From IMG/VR virus record IMGVR_UViG_3300023105_000021: a stretch of DNA of 20,000 nt; one strand, written 5' to 3'. The notes under the pieces were generated by a model that did no database searches, was not told the origin of the DNA, and saw only the letters and a list, made by a program, of their open reading frames with translations. Position numbers and translations under genes: made by a program. Shown piece by piece: positions 7,264-15,097 of this stretch. This DNA is from an uncultured virus (IMG/VR IMGVR_UViG_3300023105_000021). Lineage: Duplodnaviria; Heunggongvirae; Uroviricota; Caudoviricetes. Position 1 is the first letter of the stretch, and each line of letters opens with the position of its first letter.

Positions 7264-7653
7264 TTAGATTGCAGTTAATACTAGTACGTTTGCTGTTGAA
7301 TCGTCAGTAACAGTCCATGTATAACGATTGTTATTAAAATCAAACATTGTACGGTTGTGTACTTTACGAATGTTTACAGCACTTTCTCCGGCTACAAAAC
7401 CTTGTAGAACCATTTCGTTAGCTGCTAGTGATCCAATTGCTTTGTCAACTAGTGTACATACACCTGTGTTACCTGATGTTCCATCTGGATCATCGTGACA
7501 GTTAAATTTTGTTTCTGAGCGTTGTGATAAAATTACACCGTTGCCAACTGCTGCGTTAGCACCAATTTTACACATTACTGTTAGGTTATTACCTTCAGTA
7601 CCTGCTGAACCTTCAGTAGCACCAAAGTATCTTTTGTTTAATGGGCGTCCCAT
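7264..7653 (-). CDS. Hypothetical protein (MGRPLNKRYFG...), probably an abundant virion component, 129 aa
   Basis: ORF track. Strong AAAGGAG RBS, own late promoter, structured leader and terminator (monocistronic unit), next to the capsid gene. Confidence 0.8.
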   Translation of the reverse strand: MGRPLNKRYFGATEGSAGTEGNNLTVMCKIGANAAVGNGVILSQRSETKFNCHDDPDGTSGNTGVCTLVDKAIGSLAANEMVLQGFVAGESAVNIRKVHNRTMFDFNNNRYTWTVTDDSTANVLVLTAI

Positions 7654-7674
7654 AATTATCTCCTTTGTTTAATC

Positions 7675-7742
7675 ATTGCCGTTCTAGGGTCTACGCGGTG
7701 AGTTTCCGCATAAGTCCTCAATAGAGGCTCCTATATGACAAT
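7675..7742 (-). promoter_or_regulatory. Structured 5' leader (three-way junction) of the 129-aa gene
   Basis: Minus strand: AUUGUC/GGCAAU and UAGG/CCUA enclose hairpins CCUC-UAUU-GAGG and UAUGCGG-AAACUCA-CCGCGUA. The G-U pairs work only on the minus strand. Confidence 0.6.
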
Positions 7743-7744
7743 AG

Positions 7745-7752
7745 TATTTATC
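7745..7752 (-). promoter_or_regulatory. T4-type late promoter (GATAAATA)
   Basis: Lies immediately upstream of the structured leader and downstream of a terminator. Confidence 0.7.
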
Positions 7753-7759
7753 CAAAGAG

Positions 7760-7784
7760 AAAAAAGCCCGCACAGTGGCGGGCT
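7760..7784 (-). terminator. Intrinsic terminator of the upstream ncRNA
   Basis: Minus strand AGCCCG-CCACTGTG-CGGGCT followed by a T run (TTTTTCTCTTT). Confidence 0.85.
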
Positions 7785-7790
7785 CTAAGA

Positions 7791-8007
7791 ATAAGCAAAA
7801 TAGGTAGGACTCGGTTACACCTACAAGCCGCGGACCAAATACCATTTCATCTCCGCAACAACCTGCTTCCGCTCGGTAGAGCGATGTGACACTGCCTGTT
7901 TCCAGTACAACGCCTGGGTACCACCCCTAAGCAGTCAAGTTCGACGCTCTGGTAAACGCCTCTTCCTTGCACTATAAACATTGACTAGCTAAGTCTTTGT
8001 TGCTTAT
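7791..8007 (-). ncRNA. Stand-alone ~220-nt structured RNA, family unassigned (manA-motif-like candidate)
   Basis: GC-rich and ORF-free, flanked by a sigma70-type promoter and a terminator. 5' AUAAGCAA pairs with 3' UUGCUUAU. Internal helices include CUGCUU/AAGCAG, CGCUC-UACC-GAGCG, GUUGCGGA/UCCGCGGC, GUAGG/CCUAC and CUG-GAAA-CAG. Confidence 0.75.
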
Positions 8008-8013
8008 GTTATT

Positions 8014-8041
8014 AATATAACATCTTTATAGTAAAAGTCAA
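8014..8041 (-). promoter_or_regulatory. Sigma70-type (early/host RNAP) promoter driving the ncRNA
   Basis: TTGACT, 16-nt spacer ending in TGn, then TATATT (extended -10). The predicted start near 8007 coincides with the 5' strand of the RNA closing stem. Confidence 0.7.
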
Positions 8042-8095
8042 CCACTTTTTATAGAAAATTAATGATTTTCTGCAAGATTTTTTTTAAAAAGTGTG

Positions 8096-8103
8096 TTTAA
8101 ATA
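8096..8103 (+). promoter_or_regulatory. Late-type promoter (TTTAAATA) upstream of pqqA
   Basis: TAAATA core as in the other late promoters, 7 nt upstream of the AAAGGAG RBS at 8111-8117. Confidence 0.55.
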
Positions 8104-8123
8104 ATAGTTGAAAGGAGAGCATT

Positions 8124-8195
8124 ATGTGGACAAAACCTAGCTATACTGAAATGCGTTTTGGCTTTGAAGTTACAATGTATGTAATGAACAAGTAA
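8124..8195 (+). CDS. pqqA: Pyrroloquinoline quinone precursor peptide PqqA, 23 aa (MWTKPSYTEMRFGFEVTMYVMNK)
   Basis: Read directly: ATG 8124 to TAA 8195, with AAAGGAG 6 nt upstream. Matches the PqqA pattern MWxxP....RxGFEVTxY including the E15-x-x-x-Y19 pair from which PQQ is made. Too short for the ORF track. Confidence 0.93.
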   Translation: MWTKPSYTEMRFGFEVTMYVMNK

Positions 8196-8205
8196 AAATG
8201 TAGTC

Positions 8206-8233
8206 AAAAAAATAGGCCCCGTAGGGCCTATTT
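8206..8233. terminator. Terminator between convergent gp23 and pqqA, probably bidirectional
   Basis: Perfect 10-bp stem AAATAGGCCC/GGGCCTATTT. On the minus strand it has a cUACGg tetraloop and a 7-T run. On the plus strand it ends in TTT followed by CTAGTTTTT. Confidence 0.85.
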
Positions 8234-8254
8234 CTAGTTTTTTACAACTATAAC

Positions 8255-9430
8255 TTAGCTAAATGTTACGCCTGCGGCGATATCAACTTTACCTAAGTAG
8301 TCAGCTGCGTTACCTAGTGATGACGCAGTGTTTGTAAGCTCAACATAACCATAACGTGTCATAAATGATACTGTTGGTTCGAATGTTGATGGATCTAGTA
8401 CAACACCTGAGCTCATTAGTGGGATATATGGGCAGTAGAACGCTGCTGCGTCTGACTCGCTTGATCCTTTATAACCAATAAGAACTGGTGCAGTATCTGA
8501 TGCATATGTGTTAACATATACTTTCATTGCGTTGTTCAATGTACCAACCATTTTTGTGTTAGTTGGTGCTTCGAATGTACCTTCTGTTGTACGAGCGAAC
8601 GCTGAAGTAGTTGCTGACTGTAGGATTGTTAGCGCGAATGGGCTAACAACTGCCCAGTTACCAGCACCACGTCTTGTACGCTGTGCAATCAAGTTTGATA
8701 CTCTGTTGATTTGAACTGCTAGTGCAGCATGTTCGTCACCAACAAAAGTAGCTGTACCTGAAACGGCTGTTTGATCATAAGTTTCAGTAGCAGCGCCTGC
8801 TAGTGAACTTAGTGAGCCTAGTACTTCTTGGTCGATTTCAGCAGTAATCTCTTGAGCAAGTGCTGCCATGATTTCTGCTTCAACGTCAATACCGTGCTGT
8901 GATTGAGCATCTTGTGCCGCTTCGAATGTCCAGCGAGCTGATAGCTTTCTGGTTTTCGCTTCGACAGTTTGTTTCAAGATTTGGATTGACATTCTGTTAC
9001 CAGCCTGTCCTTCAAGTGCTGCTGTTGCCGCTGCGCGGTCAGTTGCTGCATCACCTGAATATCCTTCTGCAATCTTGAACGGTGATAGTGCTTCTTCACC
9101 AGCAGTAGCTGAAGTGCCACCTGTGCTAGTAAAGTCGTCGCTATAACGTACTCTTAGTGTGTGGATTTGACCCACTGGACCTGTCATTGGCTGAACACCA
9201 ACCAACTCGTTTGCAATAACGGTTGGCATAACACGTCTGATAACTGGTAGGATAACTCTGTTTAGAGTTGCTACATTACCGGCAGAAGTTGCACCAGCTG
9301 TTGCTGATTCTGAAAGATACTTACGAGTATTTTCTAGAGTCGCTTCCATAACAGCTTTCTTGTTGCCTTTTAGGCCTTCAACAAGTGCAGTCTTAGTGTC
9401 CTGCCAGCGACTTTCTAATAGTTCTGACAT
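8255..9430 (-). CDS. gp23: Major capsid protein, T4 gp23-like, 391 aa
   Basis: Hallmark motifs VIRRVMPTVIANELVGVQPMTGPVGQI, VEAKTRKLSARWTFEAAQD, EITAEIDQE, GYKGSSESDAAAFYCPYIPL, DPSTFEPTVSFMTRYG. AGGAG RBS, downstream of protease and scaffold. Confidence 0.97.
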   Translation of the reverse strand: MSELLESRWQDTKTALVEGLKGNKKAVMEATLENTRKYLSESATAGATSAGNVATLNRVILPVIRRVMPTVIANELVGVQPMTGPVGQIHTLRVRYSDDFTSTGGTSATAGEEALSPFKIAEGYSGDAATDRAAATAALEGQAGNRMSIQILKQTVEAKTRKLSARWTFEAAQDAQSQHGIDVEAEIMAALAQEITAEIDQEVLGSLSSLAGAATETYDQTAVSGTATFVGDEHAALAVQINRVSNLIAQRTRRGAGNWAVVSPFALTILQSATTSAFARTTEGTFEAPTNTKMVGTLNNAMKVYVNTYASDTAPVLIGYKGSSESDAAAFYCPYIPLMSSGVVLDPSTFEPTVSFMTRYGYVELTNTASSLGNAADYLGKVDIAAGVTFS

Positions 9431-10562: not shown

Positions 10563-11195
10563 TTATTGGAGTCGGTTGATTATATTAACCAACGATTCTT
10601 TTAAATATTTTTGTGCCTTATCGTCATGTTTTGTTGCCTGAGCTAATTCGTATGCCTTATACCCTCCACGGGCATTCATTAGATGCTCATAGATTGGTGT
10701 TGGGTATGCACCAGGGGCGCTTGGCTGTGCTACTGCGTCCACGGTGATTATTTCAAAATCAGAAACTTGGTTTTGACCGTCTTCTGATACATTACCTGAT
10801 CCTCTTGATGAAACACCTAGTTTCACACCAGCTTCAAGCATAGTGCGAACTAGGTTTCCCATCGGTGTTGGTAAAATTTTAAGTTTACCGTAACCGTTTG
10901 GTCCATCCATCCACATTTCTGTGATCATATGGCTTACACGGTCTAGGTTGATGTTAAGGCCTTCTGGATGATCGACTTCACCGAGAACACTATATCCTCC
11001 TGCTATTTGATCATTGAGAGTTTTGACAGCCCTACCAATTTCATTTACAGGATATACACGTTGGTTTGCATTACGCACACCGCCTTGTATGCAGATGCCT
11101 TTCATATAAAGGTCTTTTCCGCCTGTAGCGTTATCAGTAGACTCAACAACCATTCCTGCCTGGTCGAATGTCAAATGCTCTCGTAAGTTTTTCAT
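10563..11195 (-). CDS. gp21: Prohead core protease, T4 gp21-like, 210 aa
   Basis: Motifs GICIQGGVRNANQRVYP, LGEVDHP (catalytic His), LDRVSH, GVSSRGSG (catalytic Ser), DAVAQPSAPGA. Confidence 0.95.
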   Translation of the reverse strand: MKNLREHLTFDQAGMVVESTDNATGGKDLYMKGICIQGGVRNANQRVYPVNEIGRAVKTLNDQIAGGYSVLGEVDHPEGLNINLDRVSHMITEMWMDGPNGYGKLKILPTPMGNLVRTMLEAGVKLGVSSRGSGNVSEDGQNQVSDFEIITVDAVAQPSAPGAYPTPIYEHLMNARGGYKAYELAQATKHDDKAQKYLKESLVNIINRLQ

Positions 11196-13336: not shown

Positions 13337-15097
13337 TTATATTGTCTGATCATTTGCCGGCGCTGCTGCTGCGCCACCTATATCTTGTCCTGTTGCTGTT
13401 TCTGGTGGTGCTCCTTCTCCACCGTCTTCAGGTGCTGGTCCTCCAGCTGCAACATCTTCTGCACCGTCTAAATCGGAACTAATGCCTGCGCTGCTAATGC
13501 CTGCTGTTCTCATTTCACCTGCGCCATCTGTATCAGGTGTTCCTAGATTTTCGTCATTTTCTTCACGCCATAGTCTTTCATTCTCTGCAATCTCTTCAGC
13601 ACTCATTCCTAAGAAGCGTTTCATTGCAAATCTGTTTGAAACATAAGGAATTGCACTCATTTGTGTAAACGTTGGAACTCTTGCATTGTCTAGTTCTGAC
13701 TGTCTATATGCTGCAAAGTTTTGCGGTGCTTGGAACTCAAGATCAAACATGTTAGTGTCAATGTTTACACCTTGTTCTAACAAATAACGCTTAAAGTCTT
13801 GATTAAATTCTTCTGTAATTAAGCCTTGCAGACGTTCACAGTAGTTATTGAAGCGAAGTTCTTGAATGTATGCAGTGCCAACTCGTCCATCTTGAAATGA
13901 AGTGGCACCATCGTCAGCTCCAGTAGGTAAGTACGAAGATGGGATACGTAAGCCGCGTACCAACTTATTAGTAAAGTATCTAAGGTCATCAATTTCTCCT
14001 AGGTTAGTGCCACCTGGAAGCGTTTCAACTTTAGAGCCTCTACCTTCTGCGGTCTGTGGGAAGAAGTAGTCTTCGTTGATTGATAGAGGATTGTATGATG
14101 AGTCTATGACATTCTGACCGCCCCCTGTTGACGATGGGATCCTTCTCTGATGGATTTCCGTCTTAACACGTTCCACAAACTGCATTGCCAAGTGACTTGG
14201 CATGTTACCCACATCAACGTAGAATACTCTGCGCTCCGGCGCACGTTGGACACGATAGATGATGATCGCATCCTCAAGCAGTTCTTTCTGCTTGTAAACT
14301 TTAAAAATGCTTTCAAGCAAACTGTTACCAAATGGATAGTTTTGATCAAGTCCTTCACTTAAACTTAAATGAACAACATGTTCTGCATTAATAGCAACTT
14401 CTCCGTCTTCGACATTAAATCTAGAACCTTGAAGTCCTTGCTGAGGTTGTCCAACCATTCCTCTACCACTTCCAGTAAAGTACCCGGTATTAGGATTGCC
14501 GCCGCCTGTTATGTTGCCTGTAGTTTGAAAAGGTGTTGTTGCTACTAATTCTTTAAAGTTTAAATTAAAATCTTTAATTATATATTGTTCAGGAGTTTTT
14601 CCTTCTGACTCGTTAACAATAATTCTTGTAAGTTTAGCAGGATCAACATGATACCATTTTTTAGTTTCTGGGTCTCTTACAAATATTGCATCTCCGTATT
14701 TAAATACATTACGGAAGATACGAAACATACGTGTTTCAAATTTTTGAACTTTGCACCATTGTTTTAAGTATTGCCCTAGAATTGTAATTTCTGAATTAGT
14801 TGCATTTTTAAAAAAATTAAATTTAAAATTAGTTCCGTTTTCGTCATTGATTTGTGTACAAAACTCTGCAAGAATATCTAATGCAGCGTTTACTTCACTG
14901 TCATTGTCCATGGTGTTGTATTGACCATAACGCTCAACACGATTAGGTGATCCAACATATACATCAGGAAGATATGATGAATAATTGGAACGTGCAGGGC
15001 CTGGGCGGGCACCAGATGCTGTTCCGCTTAAAGGACTGTAAGTTCCGTTAATTGAGTTATCTGAACTCACAGGTGTAAAATATTTTTTCCAACTCAA
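13337..15097 (-). CDS. gp20: Portal vertex protein, T4 gp20-like, 586 aa
   Basis: Motifs LLEDAIIIYRVQRAPERRVFYVDVGNMP, EDYFFPQTAEGRGSKVETLPGGTNLGEIDDLRYF, LRIPSSYL. TTG start with GAGGAG RBS inside the upstream gene end. Confidence 0.96.
   Translation of the reverse strand: MSWKKYFTPVSSDNSINGTYSPLSGTASGARPGPARSNYSSYLPDVYVGSPNRVERYGQYNTMDNDSEVNAALDILAEFCTQINDENGTNFKFNFFKNATNSEITILGQYLKQWCKVQKFETRMFRIFRNVFKYGDAIFVRDPETKKWYHVDPAKLTRIIVNESEGKTPEQYIIKDFNLNFKELVATTPFQTTGNITGGGNPNTGYFTGSGRGMVGQPQQGLQGSRFNVEDGEVAINAEHVVHLSLSEGLDQNYPFGNSLLESIFKVYKQKELLEDAIIIYRVQRAPERRVFYVDVGNMPSHLAMQFVERVKTEIHQRRIPSSTGGGQNVIDSSYNPLSINEDYFFPQTAEGRGSKVETLPGGTNLGEIDDLRYFTNKLVRGLRIPSSYLPTGADDGATSFQDGRVGTAYIQELRFNNYCERLQGLITEEFNQDFKRYLLEQGVNIDTNMFDLEFQAPQNFAAYRQSELDNARVPTFTQMSAIPYVSNRFAMKRFLGMSAEEIAENERLWREENDENLGTPDTDGAGEMRTAGISSAGISSDLDGAEDVAAGGPAPEDGGEGAPPETATGQDIGGAAAAPANDQTI

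Follow-up and report, generated by a model that had tools for sequence, protein, structure and literature searches.

The 20,000-nucleotide (nt) stretch of DNA analysed here, referred to as the window, represents the last 20 kb of a 98.5-kb contig of an uncultured virus (IMG/VR record IMGVR_UViG_3300023105_000021; Caudoviricetes), the completeness of which was estimated at 28% by CheckV. On its minus strand, from position 8007 to position 7792, the window probably carries a small RNA gene, not a leader, the product of which would assemble by itself into an RNA-only particle early in infection. The RNA is almost certainly a divergent member of the manA family (RF01745), and it is very probably a stand-alone molecule that is terminated and trimmed. 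According to our analysis, the probable route of self-assembly consists of loop-loop contacts between molecules, denoted L5-L7' and L3-L8'. The relevant features, including the apical loops and the terminal stem P0, are the following:

7792-8007, minus strand: manA-class RNA of 216 nt, with the 5' end at 8007 and the 3' end at 7792/7791, the last base of P0
8014-8041, minus strand: sigma-70-type promoter, with the -35 box TTGACT at 8041-8036, a 16-nt spacer and the -10 box TATATT at 8019-8014
7755-7786, minus strand: intrinsic terminator, with the stem 7786-7778 / 7771-7763, the loop CACUGU and a U-run
8007-8000 (AUAAGCAA) with 7798-7791 (UUGCUUAU), minus strand: stem P0 of 8 base pairs (bp), not contained in the Rfam model
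7950-7954, minus strand: loop L3, UACCA, complementary to L8
7919-7923, minus strand: loop L5, UGGUA in GGG-GUGGUA-CCC (GUGGUA at 7924-7919), complementary to L7
7899-7902, minus strand: loop L6, a GNRA tetraloop (GAAA) capping the long helix P6
7875-7878, minus strand: loop L7, UACC in CGCUC-UACC-GAGCG
7840-7844, minus strand: loop L8, UGGUA, complementary to L3

A search of the whole window at the Rfam gathering thresholds returned nothing. With a permissive scan of positions 7600-8300 (701 bases), the manA model RF01745 was matched at 7794-7994 over model positions 1-192, with 49.8 bits and an E-value of 1e-11. The score is lower than the RF01745 gathering cut-off of 55.2 bits, which is an annotation threshold and not a structural feature, and for this reason the RNA was missed by standard annotation. 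By blastn, the RNA was detected in a single isolate phage, Pelagibacter phage Mosig, with 77.1% identity over 225 nt, and the Mosig copy scores 64.0 bits for RF01745. Additional homologues were collected from IMG/VR contigs by means of a 19-letter pattern of the shared core, which occurred in at least 119 stretches; at least 118 of these are homologues, mostly from aquatic samples, and the remaining one is a fortuitous match within a coding region. Seventeen of 20 sampled loci scored 55.7-76.2 bits, above the cut-off, and the other three 48.1-52.8 bits. The sampled scores along with the homology to the Mosig copy indicate that the window RNA belongs to a continuous manA subfamily straddling the Rfam threshold, the members at or below which escape routine annotation. 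An earlier note on this DNA, made from the sequence alone, had tentatively suggested manA, and the suggestion proved correct: the covariance model that it named gives a full-length match, although one that remains below the gathering cut-off. As a comparison set, 75 distinct cyanophage-type (canonical) manA copies were fetched, and loop counts for canonical manA refer to 80 sequences.

The promoter matches the consensus at 10 of 12 positions, contains an extended -10 TG at 8022-8021 and is immediately preceded by an A-rich tract. Promoter-like sites as such occur in the region at chance level (6 versus 4.5 +/- 2.3 expected). Among the homologous loci with enough upstream sequence, the pattern TTGAC-N17-19-TAnnnT was found at a fixed distance in 93 of 115, and the window promoter aligns with that of Mosig. 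The terminator stem comprises nine pairs, six of them G-C. Terminators were detected 3' of the motif in 69 of the 99 loci with enough downstream sequence, or in 64 of 99 when five false coding hits, located inside class II genes (see below), are subtracted. About a dozen unrelated families are represented among them, with 36 distinct hairpin sequences in total. In 45 of 50 distinct sequences, the predicted start is separated from the terminator base by 210-227 nt; the remaining five (280-286 nt) are false coding-region hits. The function of the terminator is kept and its sequence is free, which is what a plain terminator would be expected to show. The maintenance of both length and promoter through many terminator replacements, as deduced from the sequence comparison, indicates selection and not decay.

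The flanking regions of the homologues can be divided into three classes. Class I, to which the window belongs, is composed of the A-rich tract, a near-consensus sigma-70 promoter, the RNA extending from ACAUAAGC to UUGCUUAU and the terminator, followed by the T4-type late-promoter word GATAAATAC, a freshwater-2 leader and a gene starting with MGRPLNKRYFG. Class II, with a Mosig-like arrangement, has the class I promoter and RNA without a terminator, and a start codon is located 5-14 nt behind. In class III, the RNA directly follows a phage-borne permuted transfer-messenger RNA (tmRNA) and is located ahead of small genes.

Metatranscriptome data provided evidence for the RNA itself. In 22 runs from many studies, 11-29% of the sampled words of positions 7600-8260 were present. 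Four runs (X1, X2, X3 and X6) were examined as contigs; they had been chosen by means of the window sequence itself, and contigs give no expression levels. A contig of 246 letters from X2 lies on positions 7794-8007 with two differences and contains a joint that leads from 8007 back to 7792. It is read as a 216-nt cycle with a 30-letter overlap, in which some reads join 7792 to 8007. The two ends that this joint gives for the molecule agree with the prediction: position 8007 is the seventh base after the -10 box and exactly the predicted +1, and position 7792, six bases ahead of the terminator stem, is the final paired base of P0. Moreover, an Illumina adapter abuts position 7791 in one contig of X3, and X6, from another study, covers positions 7806-7976 with one difference. 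X1 and X3 additionally contain contigs from close relatives of the window RNA. Contig depths, including the low values next to the manA contig, and uncovered parts (for example 7751-7791 in X2, and 8038-8119 in each of the four runs) are given no evidential weight. At 8120-8201 the value is very high, which is due to pqqA transcripts from other organisms with a similarity of at least 90%.

The fold of the RNA was assessed by comparison of homologues. Single-sequence statistics are weak, with a z-score of -1.35 for the minimum free energy (MFE) and with 16 of 200 shuffled sequences folding at least as well, and the case therefore rests on the homologue comparison. An alignment of 80 sequences, termed A2, was generated with MAFFT and evaluated for the helices of the Rfam model plus P0. 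Fifty of the 79 proposed pairs change on both sides, a number reached by none of 500 shuffles and contrasting with 20-27 in slid registers. Likewise, 89.8% of the cells are paired, as compared with 77.2% in shuffles and 34-45% in slid registers, and again no shuffle out of 500 attained this value. Two-sided changes affect one to eight pairs in each of the helices 4-6, 8-11 and 13-15, so that covariation backs the consensus parts P1 hairpin, closing helix, P3, the P4 domain (P5-P7), P8 and P9. With respect to P0, all eight pairs change on both sides and 77.9% of the cells are paired in A2. This stem is confined to the promoter-bearing classes; neither the tmRNA-linked class nor the canonical cyanophage copies possess it. 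Four conserved G-U pairs were identified in P6, which are kept in 73-78 of 79 sequences and never become Watson-Crick pairs, and the apical L6 loop reads GAAA in 77 of 79 distinct sequences.

With these results most of the earlier note stands. It had described an independently transcribed, non-coding structured RNA of about 220 nt, equipped with a host-type promoter and a terminator of its own in a region of otherwise late character; promoter (8041-8014), terminator (7786-7763), loops, GAAA tetraloop and 8-bp stem are all present on the minus strand at the positions it gave, the metatranscriptome contig sets the length at 216 nt, and both the covariation among homologues and the lack of conservation of the small open reading frames (ORFs) argue for a non-coding structured RNA. 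Covariation among homologues, which it had proposed to look for especially in the loop-loop pairs, was found in the nested helices and not in the loops of this subfamily.

Structural data on the manA family have been presented in a preprint (Ren et al. 2026, 10.64898/2026.07.01.735769). There, manA RNAs are described by cryo-electron microscopy (cryo-EM) as RNA-only decamers, octamers and a 60-mer icosahedral cage, assemblies composed of pentamers held together by intermolecular kissing loops. The contacts listed there for manA_A0F1 are L5-L7' and L8-L9', and those for manA_pho34_A767 are L5-L7', L3-L8' and docking of the L6 GNRA loop on P6'. The canonical copies have complementary, covarying L8 and L9 loops: among 75 copies the variable pair is C-G in 65 (CUGUA/UACAG), A-U in eight (AUGUA/UACAU) and U-U in one, with one copy unparsed. 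This match to the A0F1 scheme ties our helix numbering to that of the preprint, and the GNRA sequence of L6 provides a second anchor. The L3-L8 pair and the GAAA sequence of L6 suggest that the window subfamily follows the manA_pho34_A767 scheme.

The loops of the subfamily are highly conserved. ACCA in L3 is present in all 82 distinct subfamily sequences and in none of 80 canonical manA sequences. L7 reads UCUACCGA in 68 and UCUCCCGA in nine of the 82 distinct subfamily sequences and contains ACC in 73 of them, and ACCA is found in L7 of canonical copies. In L8, GG and A are invariant, and the intervening U is either U or C. L5 is GUGGUG in the Rfam consensus and contains UGGUG in 76 of 80 canonical copies; it was fixed by the search pattern, which renders its invariance in A2 uninformative. 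L5 and L7 (UGGUA/UACC) as well as L3 and L8 (UACCA/UGGUA) are complementary, and 85-95% of the cells can pair. According to this analysis, the loops most likely pair between molecules, L5 with L7 and L3 with L8. The two pairs of complementary loops pointed out in the earlier note are thus real and conserved, but the partners are different: it had joined UGGUA (7919) to UACCA (7950) and UGGUA (7840) to UACC (7875), and the published scheme pairs them the other way round. Its suggestion of an intramolecular double kissing-loop pseudoknot is disfavoured by the missing covariation and by the equivalent loops joining protomers in the cryo-EM structures of family members.

The proposed course of events can be outlined as follows. 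Host RNA polymerase with sigma-70 would initiate at 8007 from the promoter 8041-8014, and transcription would halt at the intrinsic terminator 7786-7763. The terminator hairpin would then be trimmed to leave a 216-nt RNA, the first and last bases of which are paired in P0; both the early timing and the 3' trimming are what we infer for the window RNA. The molecule is predicted to fold into the manA core, in which P2 closes a junction bearing P3, the P4 domain (P5, P6 and P7), P8 and P9. The apical loops would link molecules by means of L5 GUGGUA with L7' UACC, L3 UACCA with L8' UGGUA, and L6 GAAA with a receptor in P6'. Pentamers closing into decamers result from the same set of contacts in one manA family member, as seen by cryo-EM (10.64898/2026.07.01.735769), and the window RNA may behave alike. 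It is plausible that the RNA acts in trans. The RNA would not gate the late gene located downstream; this gene possesses a late promoter and a freshwater-2 leader of its own.

Several observations weigh against this interpretation. The manA score of the window RNA is below the gathering cut-off. The loop pairs lack compensatory changes in either register among 79 distinct sequences; departures in the loops only break pairs, affecting 21 and 27 of 79 cells at single positions, and in the L3-L8 register 16-21 of 79 cells are unpaired by departures. The conservation of the loops is equally compatible with another role, and loop covariation neither proves nor disproves pairing. The assignment of the subfamily to the manA_pho34_A767 contact set follows only from loop complementarity and helix numbering, and the preprint describes assembly exclusively in vitro, after refolding at 50 C and 10 mM Mg2+ (10.64898/2026.07.01.735769). 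With respect to the transcript, a contig of 621 letters from X1 (7300-7911) crosses the terminator and is derived from either read-through RNA or library DNA, so that some molecules extend beyond it. The head-to-tail joint was seen in one contig of one run and could be a product of template switching or of a ligation step in library preparation. Finally, the location of the RNA directly before the start codon of rubrerythrin and peroxiredoxin genes fits a leader role at those loci.

If the four loops kissed in cis instead, the RNA would be a monomeric, trans-acting molecule folded into a compact double pseudoknot, with a protein or small molecule as its binding partner. The complementarity and high conservation of the loops and the independent transcription of the unit are in accordance with this view, and 'pseudoknot?' is marked for manA in a figure legend of the 2010 description of the motif (Weinberg 2010, PMC2864571). 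The cis arrangement is nevertheless rather unlikely, as covariation is absent in both pairing registers and equivalent loops pair between protomers in the family members solved so far. Furthermore, P5 and P7 share a short junction and P3 and P8 lie on opposite sides of it, so that a fold in cis does not appear obviously possible.

The order of aptamer, terminator and gene is also the classic layout of a riboswitch, with the manA fold as the aptamer, the hairpin 7786-7763 as the expression platform and a ligand controlling read-through into the 129-amino-acid (aa) gene and the tail genes. A riboswitch role was proposed for manA in the original description (PMC2864571), the X1 contig does cross the terminator, and in loci of the Mosig type a rubrerythrin or peroxiredoxin gene comes immediately after the RNA. 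The evidence on the terminator points in the other direction. Terminator arms were compared with the RNA in 50 distinct sequences, and the search for an antiterminator revealed no conserved alternative pairing and no excess over shuffled arms (mean z-scores -0.12 and -0.54), with locus L085 as the sole outlier (z -6.9). The terminator is fully formed in the MFE fold of 45 of 50 sequences and coexists with P0 in 32 of 50. Moreover, the 36 unrelated hairpins stand behind a nearly invariant 3' end of the RNA, the RNA 3' end observed in the metatranscriptome runs precedes the terminator hairpin, and the genes behind the motif are very diverse across the family. No ligand of manA is named in those portions of the literature on the motif that were available. 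The gene downstream of the window RNA, finally, is equipped with signals of its own:

7744-7751, minus strand: T4-type late-promoter-like box ATAAATAC
7651-7728, minus strand: freshwater-2-like leader (RF02980), which holds the Shine-Dalgarno sequence and the ATG of the next gene
7264-7653, minus strand: ORF of 129 aa (MGRPLNKRYFG...), the gene behind the freshwater-2 leader

The word ATAAATAC has three minus-strand matches in the window, all located 20-98 nt upstream of the starts of minus-strand ORFs, and the count of late boxes in the window is not enriched (4 versus 1.76 expected). Following the motif, NATAAATA was found in 60 of 99 loci. The RF02980 match covers model positions 1-84 with 45.3 bits (cut-off 49.9) and an E-value of 1.2e-5, and freshwater-2 scores 63-74.7 bits at the homologous loci L005, L006 and L059. 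The freshwater-2 core was detected downstream of manA in 43 of 68 loci, and the N-terminus MGRPLNKRYFG stands behind a freshwater-2 leader in 24 other loci; the 129-aa protein has no match in Pfam, PHROG or Atlas. The freshwater-2 leader is part of the neighbouring late transcription unit and not of the manA RNA. With its own late-promoter box and its own leader, the 129-aa gene is served independently of the manA RNA, and control of this gene by a riboswitch is accordingly unlikely. To our knowledge, Rfam knows the freshwater-2 motif from metagenomes only, and a full-text literature search on it retrieved unrelated papers only. With its position directly behind a T4-type late-promoter word and in front of a conserved phage gene, the orphan motif gains an organism, the T4-like phages, and a transcription class, late.

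The joint between 7792 and 8007 may stem from a circular RNA or from an artefact that arose at the ends of an abundant small RNA. In an extension of the self-assembly model, P0 would appose the 5' and 3' ends like a nick that is sealed by a ligase in the infected cell, and early in infection the circles would assemble by way of L5-L7' and L3-L8' into RNA-only shells that enclose or sequester a host or phage component. This extension is quite improbable; if it were true, the phage would possess a naturally circular RNA that forms cages and functions in infection. No RNA ligase (PF09414 or PF09511) was found in the 98.5-kb contig, a result that is uninformative because the contig represents an estimated 28% of the genome and none of the control genomes was matched by PF09511.

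The loci without a terminator might suggest that the RNA is a 5'-end module which protects or organises the RNA following it, and that the window copy is a relic severed by an acquired terminator. RNAs of the same subfamily indeed head mRNAs for rubrerythrin, peroxiredoxin or DUF1360-like proteins, or follow a phage tmRNA. This explanation is very doubtful, as the terminated form is the commonest one, with promoter, terminator and late box all present in 52 of 95 loci, and as length and promoter are kept through the terminator replacements. A small protein, encoded by the 44-aa ORF 7981-7847 or the 53-aa ORF 7845-7684, is a scarcely credible reason for the conservation of the region. Both ORFs are present, and 64 of 80 sequences contain a sense-strand stretch of 44 or more codons without a stop. 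However, a start codon and 40 or more open codons are retained in the frame corresponding to the 44-aa ORF by no more than 15 of the 79 distinct homologues, and in that of the 53-aa ORF by none of them; one-base insertions or deletions occur within the region, and substitutions arrive as compensating pairs.

The stand-alone, self-assembling RNA gene hence remains the preferred reading for the window copy, and the other classes show in which neighbourhoods the subfamily occurs. The class II genes encode rubrerythrin (L008, L026 and L057) or a peroxiredoxin of the Redoxin/AhpC-TSA type (L042, L055 and L117), so that the leader-type RNA of the subfamily adjoins genes of peroxide-defence enzymes. 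In class III (L004, L014, L027, L063, L114 and L116), the RNA starts about 10 nt past a two-piece tmRNA of the alphaproteobacterial type, and in two of these loci a gene for a gp33-like late-transcription coactivator follows. A tmRNA and a glutamine riboswitch at a comparable site are mentioned in the paper on phage Melnitz, in which a term search did not retrieve manA. Glutamine riboswitch aptamers (RF01739, 47-53.5 bits) are located about 145-240 nt upstream of manA in the class I loci L005, L010, L025, L053 and L059, and tRNA genes were found upstream of manA in L024 and L053. The phages of the manA subfamily appear to cluster structured RNAs. In many canonical copies (L131, L140, L142, L153 and others), the first hairpin is preceded, at a distance of a few bases, by a -10-like box (TATACT, TATAAT or TATATT); judged by eye, uncounted, canonical manA RNAs thus likewise appear to lie at the very 5' end of transcripts initiated by sigma-70.

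The manA RNA region lies in the gap of 600 nt between the gp23 gene and the 129-aa ORF (7264-7653) within a T4-type head and tail module on the minus strand of the window. The following genes of this module were recognised:

13337-15097, minus strand: portal protein gp20
10563-11195, minus strand: prohead protease gp21
8255-9430, minus strand: major capsid protein gp23
minus strand: baseplate-wedge or fibre-like protein of more than 1621 aa

The best identity of the gp23 capsid protein to any phage of the reference collection is at most 71%, and neither tRNA nor tmRNA genes were found in the 20-kb window. Between the capsid-gene terminator and the manA promoter, an ORF of 23 codons with its own Shine-Dalgarno sequence is located on the opposite strand (8124-8195, plus strand). 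It encodes a PqqA peptide (PF08042, 46 bits versus a cut-off of 21.1), the precursor of the cofactor pyrroloquinoline quinone (PQQ). A sequence of 80 nt from pqqA displays 82-91% identity to unannotated stretches in five Methylophilales/Methylophilaceae phages and to a stretch called hypothetical protein in one uncultured Caudoviricetes record. By sequence similarity, these matches hint at a methylotrophic host and at an unannotated auxiliary gene in those Methylophilales/Methylophilaceae phages. A perfect palindromic hairpin of 10 bp at 8204-8233, with an A-run and a T-run at its sides, can serve as terminator for both gp23 on the minus strand and pqqA on the plus strand. Bacterial genomes scanned with the subfamily pattern yielded 13 matches, four of them real, on metagenome-bin contigs of unrelated phyla, and gave no clue to the host.

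Since 2010, manA has been regarded as an orphan riboswitch candidate in 5' untranslated regions (UTRs) (PMC2864571), and in 2026 RNA-only manA cages were obtained in the test tube, with no biological link drawn in the accessible part of the preprint (10.64898/2026.07.01.735769). A description of manA as an independent gene, or in pelagiphage-type phages, was not encountered in the literature searched, which included term searches of PMC9004378 and PMC7029224; the Pelagimyophage and Melnitz papers mention glutamine riboswitches and tmRNA, and the same type of search did not retrieve manA from them. The family itself is known, but no publication appears to describe a manA RNA encoded as a gene of its own. 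In uncultured T4-like phages, the manA subfamily is represented by at least 118 IMG/VR loci, in most of them as an independent gene, and an RNA of the 216-nt extent is present in environmental transcriptomes and apparently expressed. The loops that form the published intermolecular contacts are conserved in the window subfamily, and the canonical L8-L9 contact covaries. By tying the in vitro RNA cage to a defined phage RNA of 216 nt, these data make the question of a cage inside the cell, and of its purpose, directly testable, and they argue against hunting for a metabolite ligand of manA.

Among known systems, species 1 and 2 of the tRNA cluster of phage T4 are stand-alone, processed and stable RNAs of unknown function. 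The window RNA resembles them in being located in a T4-type genome, and its relatives adjoin phage tmRNA and tRNA genes; we know of no indication that the T4 RNAs oligomerise. GOLLD, ROOL and OLE (Kretsch et al. 2025, PMC12286853), compared here at the level of the abstract, are likewise structured phage or bacterial RNAs of unknown function that assemble without protein, but they are several hundred nt long and unrelated in sequence and fold. With manA RF01745 (PMC2864571), the window RNA shares all helices of the model, the AGUG junction, the GGUGGU loop, the ACC loop and the phage setting, whereas it scores below the cut-off and has the extra terminal stem P0. In contrast to cyanophage manA, it possesses L3-L8 as the second pair instead of L8-L9, and its subfamily occurs in non-cyanophages. 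RF01745 is classified as a cis-regulatory element of 5' UTRs, whereas the window RNA has its own promoter and terminator and is followed by a late box before the next ORF, a placement that bears on the use of the family and not on membership. The preprint of Ren et al. 2026 (10.64898/2026.07.01.735769) likewise treats manA as a putative cis-regulatory 5' UTR element, its accessible part giving no genomic or expression context, and its assemblies were formed by in vitro transcripts at high Mg2+, whereas the evidence for the window RNA is genomic and metatranscriptomic, without a structure. Compared with manA_pho34_A767 of that study, the window RNA can be read as carrying the same set of contacts, namely the kissing loops L5-L7' and L3-L8' and, possibly, docking of an L6 GNRA loop on P6'.

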